A stretch of 64,000 nucleotides of DNA from NCBI GenBank assembly GCA_026066175.1, contig GCA_026066175.1_4721.1. The stretch is one strand, 5' to 3'. How positions within the stretch are numbered: position 1 is the first letter of the stretch; every line of letters starts with the position of its first letter. Below the pieces are notes generated by a model. The model was not told where the DNA came from, did no database searches, and saw nothing but the letters and a program-made list of their open reading frames with translations. Shown piece after piece: positions 829 to 39,305 of the stretch. Origin of the DNA: a phage. The translations under genes were made by a program, and so were the position numbers.

Positions 829-1692
829 TTAGTAATAATATCTGATACGTTCGGGTTTTGCTAAAACACTCTGTTCGAATGGCCTTACATGTACGCAAAC
901 ATCGACAGAATAATAGATACTACCATCGCCACACCATCGCATTACCACACATCCCTTTCTTGTACGAATATGGTAAAACGTCCACTGTGTTTGCCAGTTA
1001 TCGTCTGTGGATTCTTCCGTTCTTTCTTCCGCATCAAGAATCTTTTCACCGACAATATCGCTTAAATCACCATCGATATCGCTGAGATATACCGTCTCGC
1101 AACACTCACGGCTGTGGTACATTTCTACCACGTTATCGTCTTCGCGATGAAAAAGGATAGCTTTACAGTATTCCAGCTGTTCCTCGGTTATTTCTGACGC
1201 GTTAAGTAATTCGTCGTTATCAGTCACCATCCAGATATTTTTGATTACATGCCCGTCGAGCTCCTCCATTGTAAATACCTCGATATTCGGACGAACGGGT
1301 TCAGGTTGAACAATCGGAATACGAACACAACCAATTAAGGCCATCCGTCCTTTCTTTGGTCTAACCGCAAGGTAAGGTGATTTTCTTGGGTGGTTATGCA
1401 GACGTATTTCTAATTCGTCGAATTTAATCCCGTATATACCTAAGAAACGATCGAACAACCGATGAAACTCATCTGTTGCTTCTTCCAACGTTATGGCGTC
1501 TACCGTGAGTTTATGTCCCCTGAACACTCTGGTTAAATCGATAACGTCCAGTGTCTTGAAATATATTTCCGTAAGGGGATGATTTGTATTTTCCAGGTAC
1601 GTAATGGTTCTTTGAACCCAGATTTTAGGCGCAGCGCCTTTAAAACGTTTCAGGTATTTAAAGCGATAACGGGTATGATCTGATGTTATCAT
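829..1692 (-). CDS. Hypothetical protein
   Basis: ORF track gives 829..1779, but the N-terminal extension is encoded by the hairpin at 1765..1789. Start trimmed to ATG 1692..1690, preceded by AGAGAGGAGG. Confidence 0.45.
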   Translation of the reverse strand: MITSDHTRYRFKYLKRFKGAAPKIWVQRTITYLENTNHPLTEIYFKTLDVIDLTRVFRGHKLTVDAITLEEATDEFHRLFDRFLGIYGIKFDELEIRLHNHPRKSPYLAVRPKKGRMALIGCVRIPIVQPEPVRPNIEVFTMEELDGHVIKNIWMVTDNDELLNASEITEEQLEYCKAILFHREDDNVVEMYHSRECCETVYLSDIDGDLSDIVGEKILDAEERTEESTDDNWQTQWTFYHIRTRKGCVVMRWCGDGSIYYSVDVCVHVRPFEQSVLAKPERIRYYY

Positions 1693-1764
1693 TTTAGCCT
1701 CCTCTCTTAGCTTCAGAGAATTCTCAAAATCCGTTAGTTTTGATAGACCGAGTAAGACGGCATA

Positions 1765-1789
1765 AAAGCCTCCCTCCATGGGAGGCTTT
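1765..1789. terminator. GC-rich intergenic hairpin (aaagcctccc / gggaggcttt), putative intrinsic terminator
   Basis: Perfect inverted repeat with a 5-nt loop, followed by T-rich sequence, just downstream of the stop of the 1801..2349 gene. Confidence 0.45.
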
Positions 1790-3780: not shown

Positions 3781-5094
3781 TCACTTAGACACCGCCATGC
3801 TTCGCGCTAACGCAACGTCGTACGCATCCATGATTGCGTCGCCGATAGCAGTATGACGAATCAACGGAATACCTACGTCTGGATACTCTTTGGTACCCAT
3901 GATCGATACCGGTTTGTCCTGATAGGCTGCGATCATCGAACGAATGTCCTGAACCTGGTTGTATCGGCAGATGGGTTTAAAGCCTGCTTTACGGAACCAA
4001 TACTCTAATTGAGGCCAATCGGTTTCACCGCGGGCAAGATAATAGAAGGTATCTTTACCGTAGTATTCTGTCATTTTGTCACGAATATTGTTAACGAACG
4101 CATTGACTTCAGCAATGGCTTCTTTATAGCCCATTACCTTACCATGCTGGAAACAATAATCACGTGCTTCTTTCGGTGCTTTGGTTTGCCACCACTCTAC
4201 CGTTGATTCGCTGATACGACCACCGTCAGCGATTTGACCGTGCACGTCAGGGAAGACATCAATACGCGGACCGTTAACGATGGATTCTGGATTAGCCAGA
4301 TCGAAGAACACGATACCGATTTCTAACAACACCCCGTTCTTTTCCAGACTAAGGTTCTCAACATCCAAACAGAATGCAGGCTTCTCTACCGCTAATGGCT
4401 CGAATGAATGGTTGCTGGTATCCGACTCAGCTTCGAGTTCGGTGGCGTCCAGATCGGTATCCGCAGGTTTCAGTTCTAATACAGCATTATCAAGCCCGGT
4501 TAACGAAAAATAGTCTTCGAAGAAATCGGGTACCGTCATGCCATGCAAATCGATACCACAATCTTCCATCCATTGTTTAAACTGGCACTCATCGACATCG
4601 ATCGCTAAACGGCATGGTCCGTAACGATTATCCAATGACGCATCAATCCAGAAGAAAGTGCGTATAAGTAAGTAAGGATTATGCTCCGCGATGATTTCTT
4701 GGCTAGCGTGAGCATCATACACCATTACCTGTATTATTTCCTTACGTGTGTTATACGGATCAACCATCAATCGCCGCACGACTTCTCCCAGGTATTCCAG
4801 CGCACGTGTGTACACGGTAGATCCAACTTGTCCGTACGCGCTTATACCCGTCAATAGTTCCTTATAAGACGCGTCTGAAAGCGAAGACGATAGCACACGC
4901 GCCAGCTCGGCATTGTATATACTGCATGATTTCTTCGGGGCGATAGCATCATGTAACGCTTTAATAAACGCTGGTCCATCAATATCAAACAACCATCCTT
5001 GGCGTCGGTGGGCGGTATATCGTAATAACGCACCGATAGCTGCCTGGGGTGGTGTATATTCTTTTTCGTTAATTTCAAACAGTAGTTCGCTCAT
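3781..5094 (-). CDS. Protein with a C-terminal DnaQ-like DEDDh 3'-5' exonuclease domain
   Basis: Motifs LDVENLSL (Exo I, D-x-E) and HTAIGDAIMDAYD (Exo III, H-x-A-x-x-D-A) in the translated ORF. Confidence 0.5.
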   Translation of the reverse strand: MSELLFEINEKEYTPPQAAIGALLRYTAHRRQGWLFDIDGPAFIKALHDAIAPKKSCSIYNAELARVLSSSLSDASYKELLTGISAYGQVGSTVYTRALEYLGEVVRRLMVDPYNTRKEIIQVMVYDAHASQEIIAEHNPYLLIRTFFWIDASLDNRYGPCRLAIDVDECQFKQWMEDCGIDLHGMTVPDFFEDYFSLTGLDNAVLELKPADTDLDATELEAESDTSNHSFEPLAVEKPAFCLDVENLSLEKNGVLLEIGIVFFDLANPESIVNGPRIDVFPDVHGQIADGGRISESTVEWWQTKAPKEARDYCFQHGKVMGYKEAIAEVNAFVNNIRDKMTEYYGKDTFYYLARGETDWPQLEYWFRKAGFKPICRYNQVQDIRSMIAAYQDKPVSIMGTKEYPDVGIPLIRHTAIGDAIMDAYDVALARSMAVSK

Positions 5095-5110
5095 TTTAAC
5101 ACCTTTTTTG

Positions 5111-13948: not shown

Positions 13949-15403
13949 ATGAAAATCAAACAAAGCTGGAAAGACGAATTACTTGCATTAGTTAACAGCA
14001 AAAACAGTTTACAACTGACATTAGACGACGTAAAGTTTGAATTAACCGAACCGGTAAGCGAAGTGCCCGGAACGGTCGTTGTTACAATCAAACCGAACGA
14101 TAATAGTCGCTACTTTAACGAGCAGTCTCTGACCTACGTCCGTCGAGACATTGCTAAAAACTTCACCGGGATTCCGTTACGGGTTATCGTTAAGCAAGAT
14201 ACCGCTGTAAGGGATATCATCAATACGATTGCTGAACGTTACGGATTGGTATTTGACACAACCGTCGACTTCCTCGAATCAGAGCTGAATAAACAAATTA
14301 CTTTCGCAGACACCGGTATTAAAGACGTTACTGTTCCGGTTGCAAACACGTCTTATGTTTGGGCTGGTAATCTTCAGTTCAATATTGCGAACGATACGTT
14401 AAGCTTGATTACTATCATCAAGAAAACCAATCTTACGAATCTGGTTTATCTGGATGGTGTTGAAGCTGACACATCGGGGTCGTTACTGTTAGCCACCACA
14501 GCACTTGTTAACGATAGCGTAAATAAGCCGATGGTTGAAAACGAAGATATCGTCGATGAATTCTACAACGTTCTTAATGCTCTAGCCAAATATGGTGACA
14601 TAACTGGCGATGAATTAAATGCCGCCTTACATGCGTACGATGAAGCAGAAAACAGGAATAAAACCACGGTAATAACTCTTGGTGATATCCAGTGTGTTGC
14701 AACAGAAAAAGACGATTGGGAAATTGGACGTTTACGCGGTCAGATGGTTCTCGCGCTCAAATCCGACAAACAACCTGAGCGCGAGAACACGTTAAGGTTG
14801 TTTACGAATGGCGGTGACGTCTCACTAACGTTAAACACAATGAAAGATATCAGTATCGATTGGGGTGATGGGAATAAAGTAACGTTGGATGCTGAAGAAA
14901 GATACGCGCACCACACATACGCCGACAATAACCAGTACCAAATCGAAATTGTGTCTCGTACGGACCCAGATGTGCTGCGACCAAATTATATTTCTGGGAG
15001 TGAGATAACCGAAGTAATTCACTGGGCTACTACTTCAACAATAGCTCTGAATTTTGTTGGATGCGATAATTTAGCGACTGTTCCAGATGAGATCCCAACT
15101 TCGTGGACAACGTTGGACAGCATGTTTGAAAGTTGTACGAATTTGAATGATCCGTCTATCTCTAACTGGAATACAAGTAACATCACATCAATGAATGGTA
15201 TGTTCGGCGGATGCACTAAATTTAACCAACCTTTAGCTGCCTGGGATGTCAGCTCAGTAACTGACATTGGTGGTATGTTTGTCGGATGTGACAGTTTTAA
15301 CCAAGATTTAAGTGGGTGGCGATTACCGTCAGGAGTAAACCACACCAATTACGATGATGGTGCTTTCTCGTGGCAGACGGAACATAAACCGACATTCCAG
15401 TAA
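13949..15403 (+). CDS. Protein with C-terminal DUF285/BspA-like repeats
   Basis: Repeated units TSMFESCTNLN...WNTSNITSMNGMFGGCTKFNQPL..WDVSSVTDIGGMFVGCDSFNQDLSGW; ATG preceded by AAAGGAAAAG. Confidence 0.5.
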   Translation: MKIKQSWKDELLALVNSKNSLQLTLDDVKFELTEPVSEVPGTVVVTIKPNDNSRYFNEQSLTYVRRDIAKNFTGIPLRVIVKQDTAVRDIINTIAERYGLVFDTTVDFLESELNKQITFADTGIKDVTVPVANTSYVWAGNLQFNIANDTLSLITIIKKTNLTNLVYLDGVEADTSGSLLLATTALVNDSVNKPMVENEDIVDEFYNVLNALAKYGDITGDELNAALHAYDEAENRNKTTVITLGDIQCVATEKDDWEIGRLRGQMVLALKSDKQPERENTLRLFTNGGDVSLTLNTMKDISIDWGDGNKVTLDAEERYAHHTYADNNQYQIEIVSRTDPDVLRPNYISGSEITEVIHWATTSTIALNFVGCDNLATVPDEIPTSWTTLDSMFESCTNLNDPSISNWNTSNITSMNGMFGGCTKFNQPLAAWDVSSVTDIGGMFVGCDSFNQDLSGWRLPSGVNHTNYDDGAFSWQTEHKPTFQ

Positions 15404-16749: not shown

Positions 16750-19011
16750 TTACAATTCGAAATCTTCATCGATAACGCGTTGGGTTAGCACCTTGTCGCT
16801 GAAGAACTCCACCTTACGTTGATGGTATTTCCGATGTGCTTCAATCGACGTACACACCAGATACCAGAACGTGGGTGTCATACCCTCGAACTTCCCTTTC
16901 AGCTGACGTAGTCGACCTAACACCTGAATGTTACCAGTTCTCGACCCCATCGCTAACGTCATGAACGTCATCACCAAGTCAGGAAGATCGATTCCTGTAC
17001 CAGCCGATTTTACCGTTGTCACACTGATATCATTATCCAGTAACACCATGAAATCTTCTTCAGCGGTATAAGGACCTATCTCCAACTCAGGGATACGTTC
17101 ACTTAAGTAATGCGATAACGACTTGCACATATCAACGGTTGCACAATACACCAACATCTTCATGCCTTCCTGATATTGGTTCATGAAACCTTTGATAATA
17201 ACCGTATAGATAAAGTTGAAATAGGCGAGTTTGAGTTGCTTATTCTTCATGATAGACTGTTCGAATACCGTGTGAGAATAAGAACCTCCAAAGCCTTTGT
17301 ATCGGACTTTATCCGTACTGCGTAGTCGATACGTCACCGCATTTACCGCGATGTATTTCTTGTATTCACATTTCGCATAACGTGCTTCTTTCGGATACAT
17401 CAAATACAGCATCCGCTCGATGAACGGATCGTCAGACACCGCCGTTGCCGACAGATAAATGATTTCCGGAATATTCGCGTAACACTTCACTTTGAACAAG
17501 AAATGCAGAGCTTCGTGACATTCATCGTGGATTAACAATCCAATGCCTGTTTTCTCCCAGAACTCGACTGGATGGAAAACATAAGGTGCGACACAGTTGT
17601 TCTTTTCATAATCGGTTATATAACGCTGAAACATGTTCAGTGAGAATAACGCAATTTTGAAATCCAACTCACCTTGTTCTACCAACGTCTGAAATTCCAA
17701 CATGCTGTAACGAGGAATGTCGGGATGCGGTGGGTCAGACTGGGCTGTACCACGTATCTCGATAACATCACCTGGTTCCATACCGAAGAAACTTAGCAGT
17801 GAGCTACGCCATCCAGGCATGTACCTCGGTGACAGAATGATGCCCGTCCGTACACCACGTCGGAAGGTGATCTCCTGCGACATTGCGGTGTTGTGCGTGA
17901 CGATATGGTCTTTAATAACATAAAGGCTTTCGTCGTTGTCCACCGTGATGCAACGTGCCTTCGCTTTCACCGTCGGCACGATGCCGCCAATCGCTAAACC
18001 AGGAAGCGTGTTAACGGGAAGATCATCTGGAATCTCAATGCCGTCAGGAATAAGCTTAAGCAAATCGGAATGGTAAATTAATGTCTCCATCGTGTAACTA
18101 TTGATGGGGCATTTATACGCGATTCCCCCTAACCGATAAGCCAACTCCCAGACCTCGGTCATTATCTGCGAATCGGTGGTTCTGACCGCAAGGTGAGCCC
18201 ACCCTTCTTCAACACGCAGCACGCAACGATCTTTGATGAGTTCTCTGAAACGATCAAGACCCACGAGTTCTTTCGGTTCGTAAAGTCGGATTCTTACCGG
18301 ACGAGATCGTGACGATCTGTCATTAAGACGTTCCATGATTTCACTCGTGCTGAGCACCTTGTCAGGATCCGTGCATTGCCAGAGATGATCACCACACGCT
18401 TCAACCATTCGTCCATCTTCAAAGAAGACAGCGTAAAGCTGAATATCGTCATGATCAAAGATAGCAGTTACGTTCGTCGGTAAACCATCCGCGCCGATGA
18501 CCTCATCACCCACCTGGAGCTCACCAATCGGCTTCCAACCGCTTGGAACCTTAACGGGTGTATGGAGAGCCAATGCTTTCCCAGACCCCGTGCCTGCGGT
18601 GTTTAGGCTCATTCTGAAAGGGGTATCCTTACCCCCATCCATGTACTCCAACCATTCTTGCTGATCTTCACGCCACGGAAACTTCCAGTTCTTCACAAAC
18701 TCCACTTCCTTACCTGGAACCGGATCGTGGTAAACGATTTCCAACCACTCCTTTCGAATTCCTCGAGAAAAGATAAAATCCAAAAACGACTTCAGCTGTT
18801 CACGAAGTAAGTAGACCTCGCTATAATCGCTTCTTGCTGCGGCGTAGGTGTTGATGGTATCGGTGACCATTCTCCGTGTACGAGGGTCGCGTCGTTTCCG
18901 TAGATGCAAACAACGGTCTCGAAGGTAATGGCCAATCAAATGGGCAAATCGAAGTCCGTATCCGCTCAGCTTCATGCCATGCGAGAAGACGTCGATACGA
19001 GCTAACTTCAT
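16750..19011 (-). CDS. DExH-box helicase with an intein-like insertion in the Walker A motif
   Basis: GTGSGK is followed by a 229-residue insert ending VTHN, then T; removing the insert gives GTGSGKT. Downstream DExH box LLIHDECHEAL. Confidence 0.55.
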   Translation of the reverse strand: MKLARIDVFSHGMKLSGYGLRFAHLIGHYLRDRCLHLRKRRDPRTRRMVTDTINTYAAARSDYSEVYLLREQLKSFLDFIFSRGIRKEWLEIVYHDPVPGKEVEFVKNWKFPWREDQQEWLEYMDGGKDTPFRMSLNTAGTGSGKALALHTPVKVPSGWKPIGELQVGDEVIGADGLPTNVTAIFDHDDIQLYAVFFEDGRMVEACGDHLWQCTDPDKVLSTSEIMERLNDRSSRSRPVRIRLYEPKELVGLDRFRELIKDRCVLRVEEGWAHLAVRTTDSQIMTEVWELAYRLGGIAYKCPINSYTMETLIYHSDLLKLIPDGIEIPDDLPVNTLPGLAIGGIVPTVKAKARCITVDNDESLYVIKDHIVTHNTAMSQEITFRRGVRTGIILSPRYMPGWRSSLLSFFGMEPGDVIEIRGTAQSDPPHPDIPRYSMLEFQTLVEQGELDFKIALFSLNMFQRYITDYEKNNCVAPYVFHPVEFWEKTGIGLLIHDECHEALHFLFKVKCYANIPEIIYLSATAVSDDPFIERMLYLMYPKEARYAKCEYKKYIAVNAVTYRLRSTDKVRYKGFGGSYSHTVFEQSIMKNKQLKLAYFNFIYTVIIKGFMNQYQEGMKMLVYCATVDMCKSLSHYLSERIPELEIGPYTAEEDFMVLLDNDISVTTVKSAGTGIDLPDLVMTFMTLAMGSRTGNIQVLGRLRQLKGKFEGMTPTFWYLVCTSIEAHRKYHQRKVEFFSDKVLTQRVIDEDFEL
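17890..18576 (-). other. Putative intein (229 codons, Ala1 ... His-Asn, +1 Thr)
   Basis: Hint-like blocks GELQVGDEVIGADG near the N-terminus and CITVDNDESLYVIKDHIVTHN at the C-terminus; sits exactly inside the P-loop. Confidence 0.5.
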
Positions 19012-21047
19012 AACGTGATTACATCCTCCGGTTTAGGTTCTTTACGCGGTAGAAGCATGTAGTCGATCGGATGATCTGGCTTCATGGTTGGGATATAACT
19101 GTTCGGGTTTTGGAACGCATCCAGTTGCTCTTGGTGAGCGAACTTCATACTCAAGGAGCGCATGTTCATGTTCTTCTTGAAGGTACTGAAATAACGAGTC
19201 GTTCCCTGTTTCGGCATGCGGTAATCTTTCGTGTGTGGTGAACGAATCATACTCGCGTAGAGAATAACGTCCAGATGCGATAGATTCATTCGTAAACGTT
19301 GCGCACACAGACGATGCCAATAATACAGTACGTTGGCTACTTCTTCTGGTGTCGCTTCATCTTCCGAAAGGAATCCTGCACTGAACGAACCTTTCCCGAA
19401 TTTGAATTCACGTTCGATTTCTTTTGCGTATTCCATCATGTTTTTATGGATGAGTGGCATCTGGAATAGCGTCCGTGAATTGTCCCAATGTTTCAAGTCG
19501 AAGATCACAATCCCGTCTGCTGTTACTTCCCAGCTATGGCGTTTGAGATAACGGATAAACGCTTTGCTTGGTACAACAGGACGTCCACAGAAATCGAAAT
19601 TGACTTTGAGTTTACGATAGCTCTCATCTTTCCTGTCGTAAATCTCCATATCGCAAAGCGTCATGTTGAACAGACGTTGCGGGATAAGCGAACTGATCTC
19701 TTCCGCTTCAGCTACATCGTACAACATGTTCGCCAGACCGAGTTTCATCTTAATCAGCACGTGTTTGCCTTTCAGCTCACGGGCTAATTTGATGTCGTTC
19801 ATGTTCTGGCTGTAACGAAGGATATGTTGATATTCCGGCGGGATTGGTGACGTAGACACGGTGGACGAACCATCGTGATGTTTGGTCGAAAGAATGTTCT
19901 GGGTAACCTGTTGTGAACCTGTACGTGCTGAGCAGTCTCCGATGTTGTCGGTCAATGCAAAGTTATGGCTTAATTCACCATAGCACGTTGCACAGACACC
20001 AGCAGGATCAGAATGATGACAGTAACAAACGGAACGCATGTTCACAATGGTACCGATCAATTCTTTCATGTGAGGCTGTATCGACAACAGCGAACCATCT
20101 TCACGTAAGATGAATCGACCGTGGAAACCTTTAAGATCGGTTTCATCACGTATCGGCATCGGAATGGTTTCTCTGCTTCCACAATCACCAGGATGCAGAC
20201 GTTGTACAACCGCCGTTGCGATTTGCAGCTCACGTCCGAAATATTCTGACTTCTTAATCTGCTCCTTGTTGAACAACAAAGATTTTGCCGCAGAGCGACT
20301 TTCTTTTAAGCTGTCCGGAAGCGAGATCAAGCCTGCTGCATACGAGCGCATCACTGGGTCACGGAAGATCTCCGAGTTGATATCGGTTAAGAAACCACGC
20401 ATCCCAATACACTGCAATACCTGTCCGATTGACACGTGTTCGGTTCTTACCGCACGTGCGATCGGGTTGGCATGCAATGTTTTATCGGTACTTAAAACTT
20501 TTGTTAGTTTCTTGTATGCGCTCTCAATACCTTCGCGGGTGGGTTCCGCTTCAGCGATGATTTTCTTCACTTCGGGATGTACGGTAATCTGATAAAAATC
20601 ATCCGCACAGATGGTCGTTACGTATTCCTCCAACGCATACGTAAAGAAGTTATAAACGTGGTTAAACATATCGAACAACGCTTTCCAGAGAACCTCACGA
20701 TTCTCTTGCGGATACGCATACATGCATTGACGATAGGCTGCGCTTTGTAATGCAACGGAAGAACCTGCCGTAAACTTGCGTTTATCCACCAGGTTCTCTT
20801 TCGTTAACGGTGTCTCAGGATACATGCGATGTAAAGACCAATGCATGTAGCTAAAGAAAATGCGTCGCGCACGCAATTCATGAACACCATCGTCCATCTC
20901 GATATACACACGGTCATTAGGCTGTGCCCACTCGAACACCTCATCAACCGGCCAATGCATAAGCTCTCGCGCCCGTACACGGCGTTTCGTGGTGATCGTC
21001 TGTACTGTATTCATTATTTTTACTTTCCGATTAAGTGGTTTTATCAT
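19008..21047 (-). CDS. Large hypothetical protein (679 aa), Cys-cluster containing; possibly a polymerase subunit
   Basis: ATGA overlap with the helicase start; contains CYCHHSDPAGVCATC. Function not assignable from sequence alone. Confidence 0.4.
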   Translation of the reverse strand: MIKPLNRKVKIMNTVQTITTKRRVRARELMHWPVDEVFEWAQPNDRVYIEMDDGVHELRARRIFFSYMHWSLHRMYPETPLTKENLVDKRKFTAGSSVALQSAAYRQCMYAYPQENREVLWKALFDMFNHVYNFFTYALEEYVTTICADDFYQITVHPEVKKIIAEAEPTREGIESAYKKLTKVLSTDKTLHANPIARAVRTEHVSIGQVLQCIGMRGFLTDINSEIFRDPVMRSYAAGLISLPDSLKESRSAAKSLLFNKEQIKKSEYFGRELQIATAVVQRLHPGDCGSRETIPMPIRDETDLKGFHGRFILREDGSLLSIQPHMKELIGTIVNMRSVCYCHHSDPAGVCATCYGELSHNFALTDNIGDCSARTGSQQVTQNILSTKHHDGSSTVSTSPIPPEYQHILRYSQNMNDIKLARELKGKHVLIKMKLGLANMLYDVAEAEEISSLIPQRLFNMTLCDMEIYDRKDESYRKLKVNFDFCGRPVVPSKAFIRYLKRHSWEVTADGIVIFDLKHWDNSRTLFQMPLIHKNMMEYAKEIEREFKFGKGSFSAGFLSEDEATPEEVANVLYYWHRLCAQRLRMNLSHLDVILYASMIRSPHTKDYRMPKQGTTRYFSTFKKNMNMRSLSMKFAHQEQLDAFQNPNSYIPTMKPDHPIDYMLLPRKEPKPEDVITL

Positions 21048-37066: not shown

Positions 37067-37304
37067 TTAGCATTGGTTATTGATTGCTTCTATTTCATCG
37101 ATATACGGTTCTACGTCATCGCCCTCCACGAATTCGTTGAACCAACAGTCAATCGTTGAGATAACCGGTGACTGATGTTCACATTTCTTAGATACCTTAA
37201 ACGGAACGTTGTTATCCATCATACCGAGTTCGGGTCGGAATCGCCCGAAATGTTTCGCAGTCCAAATGTCTGGGACGATATGGTTGTTCATAGCGTCTCC
37301 GTCG
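37067..37304 (-). CDS. RNA polymerase beta-prime N-terminal subunit, exon 3
   Basis: Frame is open upstream of the track ATG back to the proposed 3' splice site; the exon begins c-gac-gga-gac (xDGD) and continues AMNNHIVP...LGMMDNN, which aligns with beta-prime DGDQMAVHVP...LMMSTNN. Confidence 0.6.
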
Positions 37305-37683
37305 CTGTTTGTCGACTATATCTTCATCTTCATTGCGAAGAGACTCTCGTTTGGGTTTGTGTTTAACAAAGCCTACTCTACTCAACATCGCGTCTTTCGA
37401 TAGTCTGTGAGCACACATCTTAACGAATATTCGTGGGTTCCTACAGACAGGTGAATATTCTTGTTGAGATGCTTCGCTGCGGATTATTCCCGTCCTACCT
37501 CTTTTACCATACCCAGTTCATTACGCTGGCCCTCATCGATGTCACCATGATGAGTTGGTGTGTAGTCCGATTACAGAAACTTCCCGTCAATTAGAGAGTT
37601 TTAACTATGCTCCTGTTACCAGGAACCAGATCCCGACGGCATCAATAAATCAACGTAAGTTATTGATTTAATTGAAAAAACTG
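37305..37683 (-). ncRNA. Group I intron 2 (about 379 nt)
   Basis: Minus-strand core elements AAUUGACGGGAAG (P), AAUAAUCCGCAGCG (Q), GCUCACAGACUAUCG (R) and GAAGAUAUAGUCG (S). Preceding exon ends in U, intron ends in G, and an internal GAUCUG can pair with exon CAGAUU. Confidence 0.6.
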
Positions 37684-37702: not shown

Positions 37703-38071
37703 CTTCGATATGGTTCGCTACGCCATACCCGCACATACGTGCAGCTTACGTCTTTCACGTAAGAAGAGACTATATCTTTCACCCTCAGCTTTACCTGTTA
37801 GGGGCTCCCATTTCGGCGGTCGTTTGACCGGTGGTTTCCCACGCCGCTTGGCCCTAACGCCCGTAAGCGATAGTCGTTGAGCACATCTCCGTTCTGGAGA
37901 CTTCGCTGCGGATTCCCCAATCCTTACTGCTTTTACCGTACCTGAATGATTAGTTCAGCCCCATGCTCTGTTCCCAGGCATGGTTGGTGAGCAAGGCTCT
38001 AAGTAGGTTCCCGCTATTAGAGAGTTCCTCGTGATAGCATTACTGTGTCACTGGGCCTAATGACCCTTTCA
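37703..38071 (-). ncRNA. Group I intron 1 (about 369 nt)
   Basis: Minus-strand core elements AAUAGCGGGAAC (P), GGAAUCCGCAGCG (Q), GCUCAACGACUAUCG (R) and GAAAGAUAUAGUC (S). Proposed P1 pairs exon AUGAUCU with GGGUCAU across a UGAAA loop; intron ends in G. Confidence 0.55.
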
Positions 38072-39305
38072 AGATCATCACGCTTAACCCGATGGTATTA
38101 TCCTGCGGGTCGCGTTTAACCTTGGTGATTTCAAGACATTGGTTACTGCTACGGTCAAGTGATGGATTTCGAACAAAGCCACACACAATCCCATCGAACG
38201 GTGTATCAGCAATAAGCTCGTCATGCAGCTCGCTCATCATCGGATGATAATTGCGGACATGCTCTGCAACGAACGCACGGGCTGCTCTTGGTGAATAACC
38301 ACGATGGAATAACTTGGATTGGATATGTTCTTTATTGGTTAGTGTAAATGGTGCGTACGGAAAATGCAGATGATAATAACGATGGTTTGCTGTTATCGAA
38401 CTGATGACCGTACGTGTGGTGAATGGATGTAATGTACCTAATATGTTCTTACGTGTGATCCCTTTCTTCTTACCAATGAACTCATCGAAAATCGCCGAGT
38501 GATACTGCAACAGCTTCAATTGCACTTTCGCCATCCAGTTTTCTTTCTTTCTGGCGCTTAGTGGCGTGGTTGGATGATAGATGCTATTCAATGTTCCGAT
38601 GGCGTCTATCGCACCTTCCATTTTGCTGTCAGCGTAACGTCCTGTTGGCGTGTTCTCGATCACGAACATCATGGCTGCAGGAAAGCTGATGTACTGACTG
38701 AAGAATTTATCCCGATGAATACGGATGAATTCGCGTAGCGTATCAACCTTCTCCATGTTCTTCGGTCCACGTAGTGTTGGGCCTTTATACAAGATCTCCA
38801 TGATACGATCGAAGTTCTGTATAAAGCTATTTATACCGCGTCGTATTCCGAATACATCGAATTGCTGTTCCAGATAGTTCTTAAGTTCGATCGGTCGTTT
38901 TACGTTCGGACGGTAACTGGCATCAATGAGCCACGTCATCGTTTCAAAGCTTTTGATATTCAACTCGCTTGCCAGCACGAGATGGACCAACGGGTTAATG
39001 AACGCATCGATACCTTCCGGTACGCGCGCCCAGACCGTTGAACGAATCTCTTGTTCTGCTGGATAAGTGACAACCGTTTTACAGTTCGGGCACACCGTCC
39101 CTAATAACTCACCGCGATTATAGAAACCACAACCGCATTGCGGGGTGATATCCAAGGTATCGCTAGAGTAAACACGGGTGATGAAACTGTTTAATTTCTT
39201 CTTCTCTTCCACGACCTTCGTATCATAATCGTTCAACAATATCGGCGTAAAAGGAAGTTCTGCGAGCTGTCTATCGAAACTGACGATATCGAGCATGATG
39301 GCCAT
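38072..39305 (-). CDS. RNA polymerase beta-prime N-terminal subunit, exon 1
   Basis: N-terminal zinc-binding CGCGFYNRGELLGTVCPNC and RNPSLDRSSNQCLE matching beta-prime RQPTLHRLGIQAFE. The track ORF continues to a stop at 38040 through intron sequence (LKGSLGPVTQ). Confidence 0.6.

Follow-up and report, generated by a model that had tools for sequence, protein, structure and literature searches.

The window (the whole stretch of phage DNA analysed here, 64,000 nucleotides) carries on its minus strand a gene encoding a 753-aa protein of 86.9 kDa (16750..19011). The start of this gene and the stop of the RNA polymerase beta-subunit gene lying upstream (19008-21047) share 4 bases. The protein matches PHROG 16, 'DNA helicase' (E = 2.5e-24), and gives a weak match with the XPB helicase model. 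The presence of the motifs DECH (aa 496-499; 17515-17526), SAT (aa 521-523; 17443-17451) and QVLGRLR (aa 696-702; 16906-16926), all encoded on the minus strand, identifies it as a superfamily 2 DExH helicase (XPB/Ssl2-like). Its orthologs include gp164 of Escherichia phage vB_EcoM_Goslar, gp040 of Pseudomonas phage EL and gp251 of Erwinia phage Rebecca.

The helicase contains an insert of 229 residues (A146-N374, 25.7 kDa; 17890..18576, minus strand) located within its Walker A motif. The N-extein (aa 1-145; 18577..19011, minus strand) ends with GTGSGK, the first six residues of Walker A (18577-18594), and the C-extein, which carries the three helicase motifs (aa 375-753 and the stop codon; 16750..17889, minus strand), begins with Thr375 (17887-17889). 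This is the Thr of Walker A and, as residue +1, it would serve as the acceptor nucleophile in splicing. A preliminary description of this DNA had proposed an intein-like insertion in the P-loop of a DExH helicase at this position, with no indication of strand. The minus-strand translation of 17890-18576 gives exactly the residues that it quoted (ALALHTPVKV...IVTHN). The boundaries are also as described, with NTAGTGSGK before and TAMSQEITF after the insert, and these flanking residues confirm that excision restores GTGSGKT with Thr at +1. The three motifs listed above bear out the choice of host protein. The plus strand of the interval was searched for ORFs of at least 80 aa and contained none.

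The window is collinear with Goslar, a nucleus-forming jumbo phage of E. coli that is available in culture as a model, and the nucleotide identity is 78-91%. Goslar gp164, annotated as 'DNA helicase', is a protein of 524 aa that shows 4 amino-acid differences from the window protein outside the insert (99% identity). The alignment of the two proteins includes a single gap, which corresponds exactly to A146-N374 (687 bases). Clearly, the exact absence of an in-frame insert from gp164 represents the strongest type of comparative evidence for an intein. Such an arrangement lies far beyond what chance could produce. The preliminary description had suggested alignment with an intein-free homolog, and had considered that its own interpretation would fail if homologous helicases kept the 229 residues as a conserved, non-excised domain; gp164 is empty at this position and lacks precisely these residues. 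When the intein DNA was compared with complete E. coli genomes using megablast, no match was obtained, and it is therefore not a prophage copy. Its GC content is 0.49 compared with 0.46 for the exteins, a difference too small to be read as recent transfer.

The insert is an intein, that is, an element with the Hint fold. A phmmer comparison with the solved class 3 DnaB inteins of Mycobacterium chimaera (Mch DnaBi1; 6rix and 6riy) and M. smegmatis (Msm DnaBi1; 6bs8) gave E values of 1.3e-13 to 6e-13, with a full-length identity of about 20%. These inteins start with ALAL and have HxW, RC and THN in common with the insert, and the N-termini nearly superimpose (ALALHTP in the insert; ALALDTP or ALALYTP in the solved DnaB inteins). 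An AlphaFold model of the insert, obtained with an alignment of 56 sequences, has a pLDDT of 91.3. Using this model, Foldseek retrieves the same class 3 inteins as best matches (target-normalised TM 0.83-0.87), followed by endonuclease-bearing inteins (for example, PI-SceI).

Sequence matches and alignment define two Hint lobes, both encoded on the minus strand. The N-terminal lobe (intein residues 1-70; 18367..18576) includes blocks A and B and carries Ala1 (18574-18576), Cys61 at B:7 (18394-18396), His64 at B:10 (18385-18387) and Trp66 at B:12 (18379-18381). The C-terminal lobe (intein residues 194-229; 17890..17997) includes blocks F and G and carries Cys209 at F:4 (17950-17952), Thr227 at G:5 (17896-17898), His228 (17893-17895) and Asn229 (17890-17892).

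The Pfam Hint models remain below their gathering thresholds with both the insert and the whole protein (E 0.007-0.18) and cannot therefore be used as proof of an intein. The NCBIfam model intein_Cterm (TIGR01443) passes its cut-off on residues 207-229. The generic profile search recommended in the preliminary description is thus weakly positive: it succeeds with the NCBIfam model and fails with those of Pfam. PHROG terminase, primase and helicase-loader families match the insert only through members that themselves bear inteins. A word-indexed protein search with the insert alone returned one partial protein, and a full-length query was far more informative. Together, the empty allele in Goslar, the class 3 DnaB matches, the confident Hint-fold model and the presence of inteins at the corresponding position of orthologous helicases establish the nature of the insert. 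The Hint-like N- and C-terminal blocks reported initially are recovered by both sequence and fold as blocks A, B, F and G, and the terminal His-Asn is His228-Asn229.

Class 3 inteins are recognised by Trp at B:12, Cys at F:4 and Thr at G:5; they do not need an N-terminal nucleophile and have Ser or Thr at +1 (PMC5222942, PMC5050341). The insert includes all of these features (W66, C209 and T227, together with A1 and T375). Eight residues, G13, G31, H64, W66, C209, T227, H228 and N229, are invariant in the 56-sequence alignment. Position 1 is Ala in 47 of the 56 sequences and +1 is Thr in all 55 listed relatives. The relatives are found in varied ATPases (DnaB, Snf2, PhoH, TraG/VirD4-like, SecA, Clp/AAA and UvrD-like) and nearly all occupy a P-loop at GK/T, where the slash marks the point of insertion; a PhoH-like subgroup occupies GR/T and one relative lacks the motif. 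The best matches in both sequence and fold, Msm and Mch DnaBi1, are experimentally class 3, closeness being judged here from the top matches.

Class 1 was rejected because the intein has no nucleophile (Cys, Ser or Thr) at position 1, which is Ala. Class 2 of the Mja KlbA type was likewise not retained: Mja KlbA, a characterised class 2 intein, has Cys at +1 and no Cys at F:4, while here +1 is Thr and F:4 is Cys. The preliminary description had correctly noted Ala instead of Cys or Ser at position 1, and a Cys in the C-terminal block (Cys209), and had left the choice between class 2 and class 3. With a Trp/Cys/Thr signature that is invariant in the 56 relatives and Thr at +1, the second of these can be kept and the first abandoned.

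From its sequence, we consider it very probable that this element is a class 3 intein inserted at the P-loop GxxGxGK/T of the conserved superfamily 2 helicase in a nucleus-forming, Goslar-like jumbo phage, that it splices by the class 3 pathway and that its endonuclease has decayed. In the translated precursor, Walker A would be split between K145 and T375 and the protein would presumably not bind ATP. Cys209 would attack the K145-A146 peptide bond to generate a thioester-branched intermediate at block F, and the N-extein would then be passed to the side chain of Thr375. Cyclisation of Asn229, aided by His228, would release the 25.7-kDa intein, and an O-to-N acyl shift would join K145 to T375 to give a helicase of 524 aa with an intact GTGSGKT (computed masses are 86.9 kDa for the precursor, 61.2 kDa for the ligated helicase and 25.7 kDa for the intein). 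We infer that splicing occurs from an intact catalytic set, strong purifying selection and the presence of an identical 753-aa protein on 15 metagenome contigs; the chemical steps would follow the class 3 order. Across three diverged alleles (dS 0.3-0.9), dN/dS is 0.04-0.25 for the Hint lobes and 0.01-0.09 for the exteins.

Other interpretations were weighed against these data. BIL domains occur in variable, non-conserved protein regions and typically lack a ligation-competent +1 site. They appear among the lower-ranked fold matches, which raises the possibility that the insert is a BIL or another Hint domain that cleaves without ligation. This was rejected, and is hardly conceivable, since the insert lies in Walker A, which is catalytic and highly conserved in this core helicase, with a nucleophile (Thr) at +1 and a terminal His-Asn, an exact empty allele exists and the best matches are true inteins. 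The insertion might alternatively be dead, leaving either a helicase pseudogene or a protein that tolerates the 229 residues as a permanent domain. An intein pseudogene, Arth_1007, is documented elsewhere (PMC3196547), and the endonuclease part of the present intein is clearly decayed. However, the catalytic residues are all intact in three alleles diverged to dS 0.5-0.9, dN/dS is low in both Hint lobes and exteins, and the same allele recurs on the 15 metagenome contigs, which are independent. In addition, the insert separates the K and T of Walker A, and a P-loop intein in RadA is reported to disrupt ATPase function (PMC6195587). We therefore give very little credence to a non-splicing insert.

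An alternative of a different kind concerns only the chemistry: Thr375 might attack the N-terminal junction directly, with Cys209 simply assisting. Ala1 is compatible with this class 2 route as well as with class 3, but the +1 residue is Thr and not Cys as in Mja KlbA, the full signature is invariant in the 56 relatives and the class 3 mechanism of the closest solved inteins is established by experiment. This makes it a most improbable route here, even though direct attack by the +1 residue is the class 2 mechanism and, for want of a Cys F:4 mutant, inteins with a class 3 signature might in principle use it (PMC5222942).

The two lobes of this class 3 intein are separated by a middle domain (intein residues 71-193; 17998..18366, minus strand), which appears to be the remnant of a second LAGLIDADG half-domain. 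Its predicted fold is helix-strand-strand-helix-strand-strand and its pLDDT is 84. It can be aligned to the second LAGLIDADG half of the Rebecca intein (for example, VWELAYRLGGIA with VQYLVRSIGGIA), and the alignment with Rebecca also indicates that the first half, together with its motif, is deleted from the window intein. The domain has no match in Pfam (PF14528 and PF05204 included), whereas the Rebecca intein and that of the metagenome relative P0004 (see below) pass the LAGLIDADG_3 cut-off. When the isolated domain is submitted to Foldseek, the natural-protein matches are mostly LAGLIDADG enzymes, each of them weak (E at least 0.02). The motif region is ELIKDRC in the window intein and IKGHC or VKGRC in the sister alleles, with Asp at position 116 in the former and Gly in the latter. 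Since this region differs among sister alleles, there is no conserved catalytic acidic residue. The dN/dS of the middle domain (0.09-0.29) is nevertheless below that expected for a neutral relic.

An active LAGLIDADG endonuclease has two such half-domains, or one that pairs as a homodimer, each with a catalytic Asp or Glu. These sequence comparisons point to an inactive LAGLIDADG endonuclease remnant and to an intein that is probably no longer mobile. It would descend from a LAGLIDADG-bearing ancestor by loss of the first endonuclease half-domain and of the catalytic acid. With both lost, inheritance is probably vertical or by flanking recombination and not by homing. The purifying selection may reflect structural requirements of splicing, or a role that the domain has kept. 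It could also be argued that the half-domain forms homodimers and acts in the manner of I-CreI, a LAGLIDADG endonuclease with a single motif, and that the intein still homes into empty alleles. The domain is modelled confidently as one alpha-beta-beta-alpha-beta-beta unit, it is under purifying selection and empty alleles coexist in nature. On the other hand, it has no LAGLIDADG Pfam hit where its full-length relatives pass the cut-off, no acidic residue of the motif region is conserved across sister alleles, and divergence among the mini-intein alleles is similar to that of their exteins, which fits long vertical descent better than recent spread. An intein that remains mobile is accordingly very unlikely.

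Position B:7, which adjoins the catalytic centre in the motif, is Cys in the window intein (Cys61) and in 38 of 56 relatives; it is Thr in class 1 inteins, whereas Msm DnaBi1 has Asp. Judging from the sequence, Cys61 might conceivably act as a redox or metal sensor. Redox- or metal-gating has been shown for splicing of Msm DnaBi1. It is possible, if rather unlikely, that the half-LAGLIDADG domain and the Cys61/Cys209 pair render splicing conditional here (for example, redox- or metal-gated) and that the domain has been kept for this gained role. Should this be the case, the helicase would be activated at a particular stage, or in a particular compartment, of the nucleus-forming infection cycle.

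In public data, Goslar-like helicases are found with three alleles at the GK/T site. The empty allele (524 aa) is found in Goslar and P0005. The mini-intein of 229 aa with Ala1 is found in the window, P0002 and P0003, and these inteins are 81-83% identical. The third allele, in P0004, is an intein of 352 aa with Ser1 and a complete two-motif LAGLIDADG endonuclease. It is located on metagenome contig ERZ16268287 scaffold_1988 (L004:3436-4491), at the same GK/T codon of a near-identical helicase. The P0004 intein has kept the class 3 Trp/Cys/Thr signature and the Thr-His-Asn, its endonuclease passes the Pfam cut-off and it is likely to be an active homing element aimed at the site that is empty in Goslar. 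Its Hint lobes are 53-56% identical to those of the window intein and the middle regions of the two cannot be aligned by BLASTP, while the exteins are about 97% identical. Given the much greater divergence of the inteins, the two types are probably separate acquisitions.

The extein DNA in the approximately 400 bases downstream of the site occurs as two haplotypes, one shared by the window and Goslar and the other by P0003 and P0004. These do not track intein type, indicating that recombination has occurred around the site, and the mismatch between haplotype group and the presence or type of intein suggests repeated recombination or co-conversion. When the exteins of the window are compared with L001, L004, L005 and L006, nucleotide identity between alleles is 75-85% near the intein site and on its downstream side, and 93-100% elsewhere. 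The drop covers approximately nucleotides 360-840 of the spliced gene (about 17480-17889 and 18577-18650 in the window).

Relatives of the window intein were found in 551 phage records, and the representative protein clusters that contain them number more than 10,000. Only one of these clusters is closer than about 45% identity, and the lineage of the window intein is rare.

The mechanism is not new: the archetypal class 3 inteins are those that interrupt P-loops in phage helicases and terminases. The mycobacterial inteins Msm DnaBi1 and Mch DnaBi1, together with that of mycobacteriophage Bethlehem, also interrupt the P-loop of a helicase. Features common to the window intein and these DnaB class 3 inteins are the ALAL start with no nucleophile at position 1, His at B:10, Trp at B:12, Cys at F:4, the Thr-His-Asn ending and Ser or Thr at +1. 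They differ in their host, a superfamily 2 DExH helicase in the window and the RecA-type DnaB in mycobacteria, and in size: the window intein keeps an endonuclease remnant of about 120 aa, whereas the solved DnaB inteins are mini-inteins of 139-146 aa. The 'classic' P-loop inteins of phage terminases (TerL1-a) are inserted after the invariant Lys of Walker A and immediately before its nucleophilic Thr (PMC5050341). This is also the insertion point in the window, although the host proteins differ.

EL gp040 and Rebecca gp251 come from two other chimalliviruses: the same gene, downstream of the RNA polymerase beta-subunit gene as in the window, contains an intein at the identical GK/T codon with the same class 3 residues. 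The EL intein (31% identity to the window intein) starts with Met instead of Ala; InBase lists an EL ORF40 intein. That of Rebecca (41% identity) includes both LAGLIDADG motifs and passes the Pfam cut-off, unlike the window intein. A search of the literature yielded no report dealing specifically with inteins of Goslar or of chimallivirus helicases.

For annotation purposes, the product of the gene should be described as a precursor that contains an intein and yields a helicase of 524 aa; generic Pfam Hint models miss this intein. The locus also provides a natural test system, with an empty site in the cultured phage Goslar and, at the same codon, a mini-intein or an endonuclease-bearing intein in its metagenome relatives. 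The three alleles permit tests of intein homing, loss and competition between co-infecting chimalliviruses. The compact Ala1/Thr+1 class 3 intein, of enterobacterial phage origin, is a possible engineering part.

Several other differences between the window and Goslar were observed. Two group I intron-like elements occur in tandem on the minus strand, adjoining an ORF for an RNA polymerase beta' fragment (38040-39305). The first (37305-37674; 49.1 bits for a gathering score of 50, E = 4e-11) corresponds to the annotated intron of Goslar, and the second (37746-38083; 27.9 bits, E = 9e-5) coincides with an insertion of 357 bases that Goslar does not have. Conversely, the window lacks, at approximately 37291-37309, about 1.4 kb that Goslar has beside its group I intron (167846-169282), including the HNH endonuclease gene gp186; both the intron and the intein of the window are thus endonuclease-less versions. 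Close to the thymidylate synthase gene, about 880 inserted bases that are also absent from Goslar are occupied by an ORF of 316 aa (829-1779, minus strand), which matches only PHROG 2650, a family of unknown function (E = 1e-22). Finally, two stretches, 4391-5107 and 14499-15158, are too diverged from Goslar for blastn alignment and fall within genes matching gp147 (3'-5' exoribonuclease) and gp161 (BspA-like leucine-rich repeat protein), respectively.
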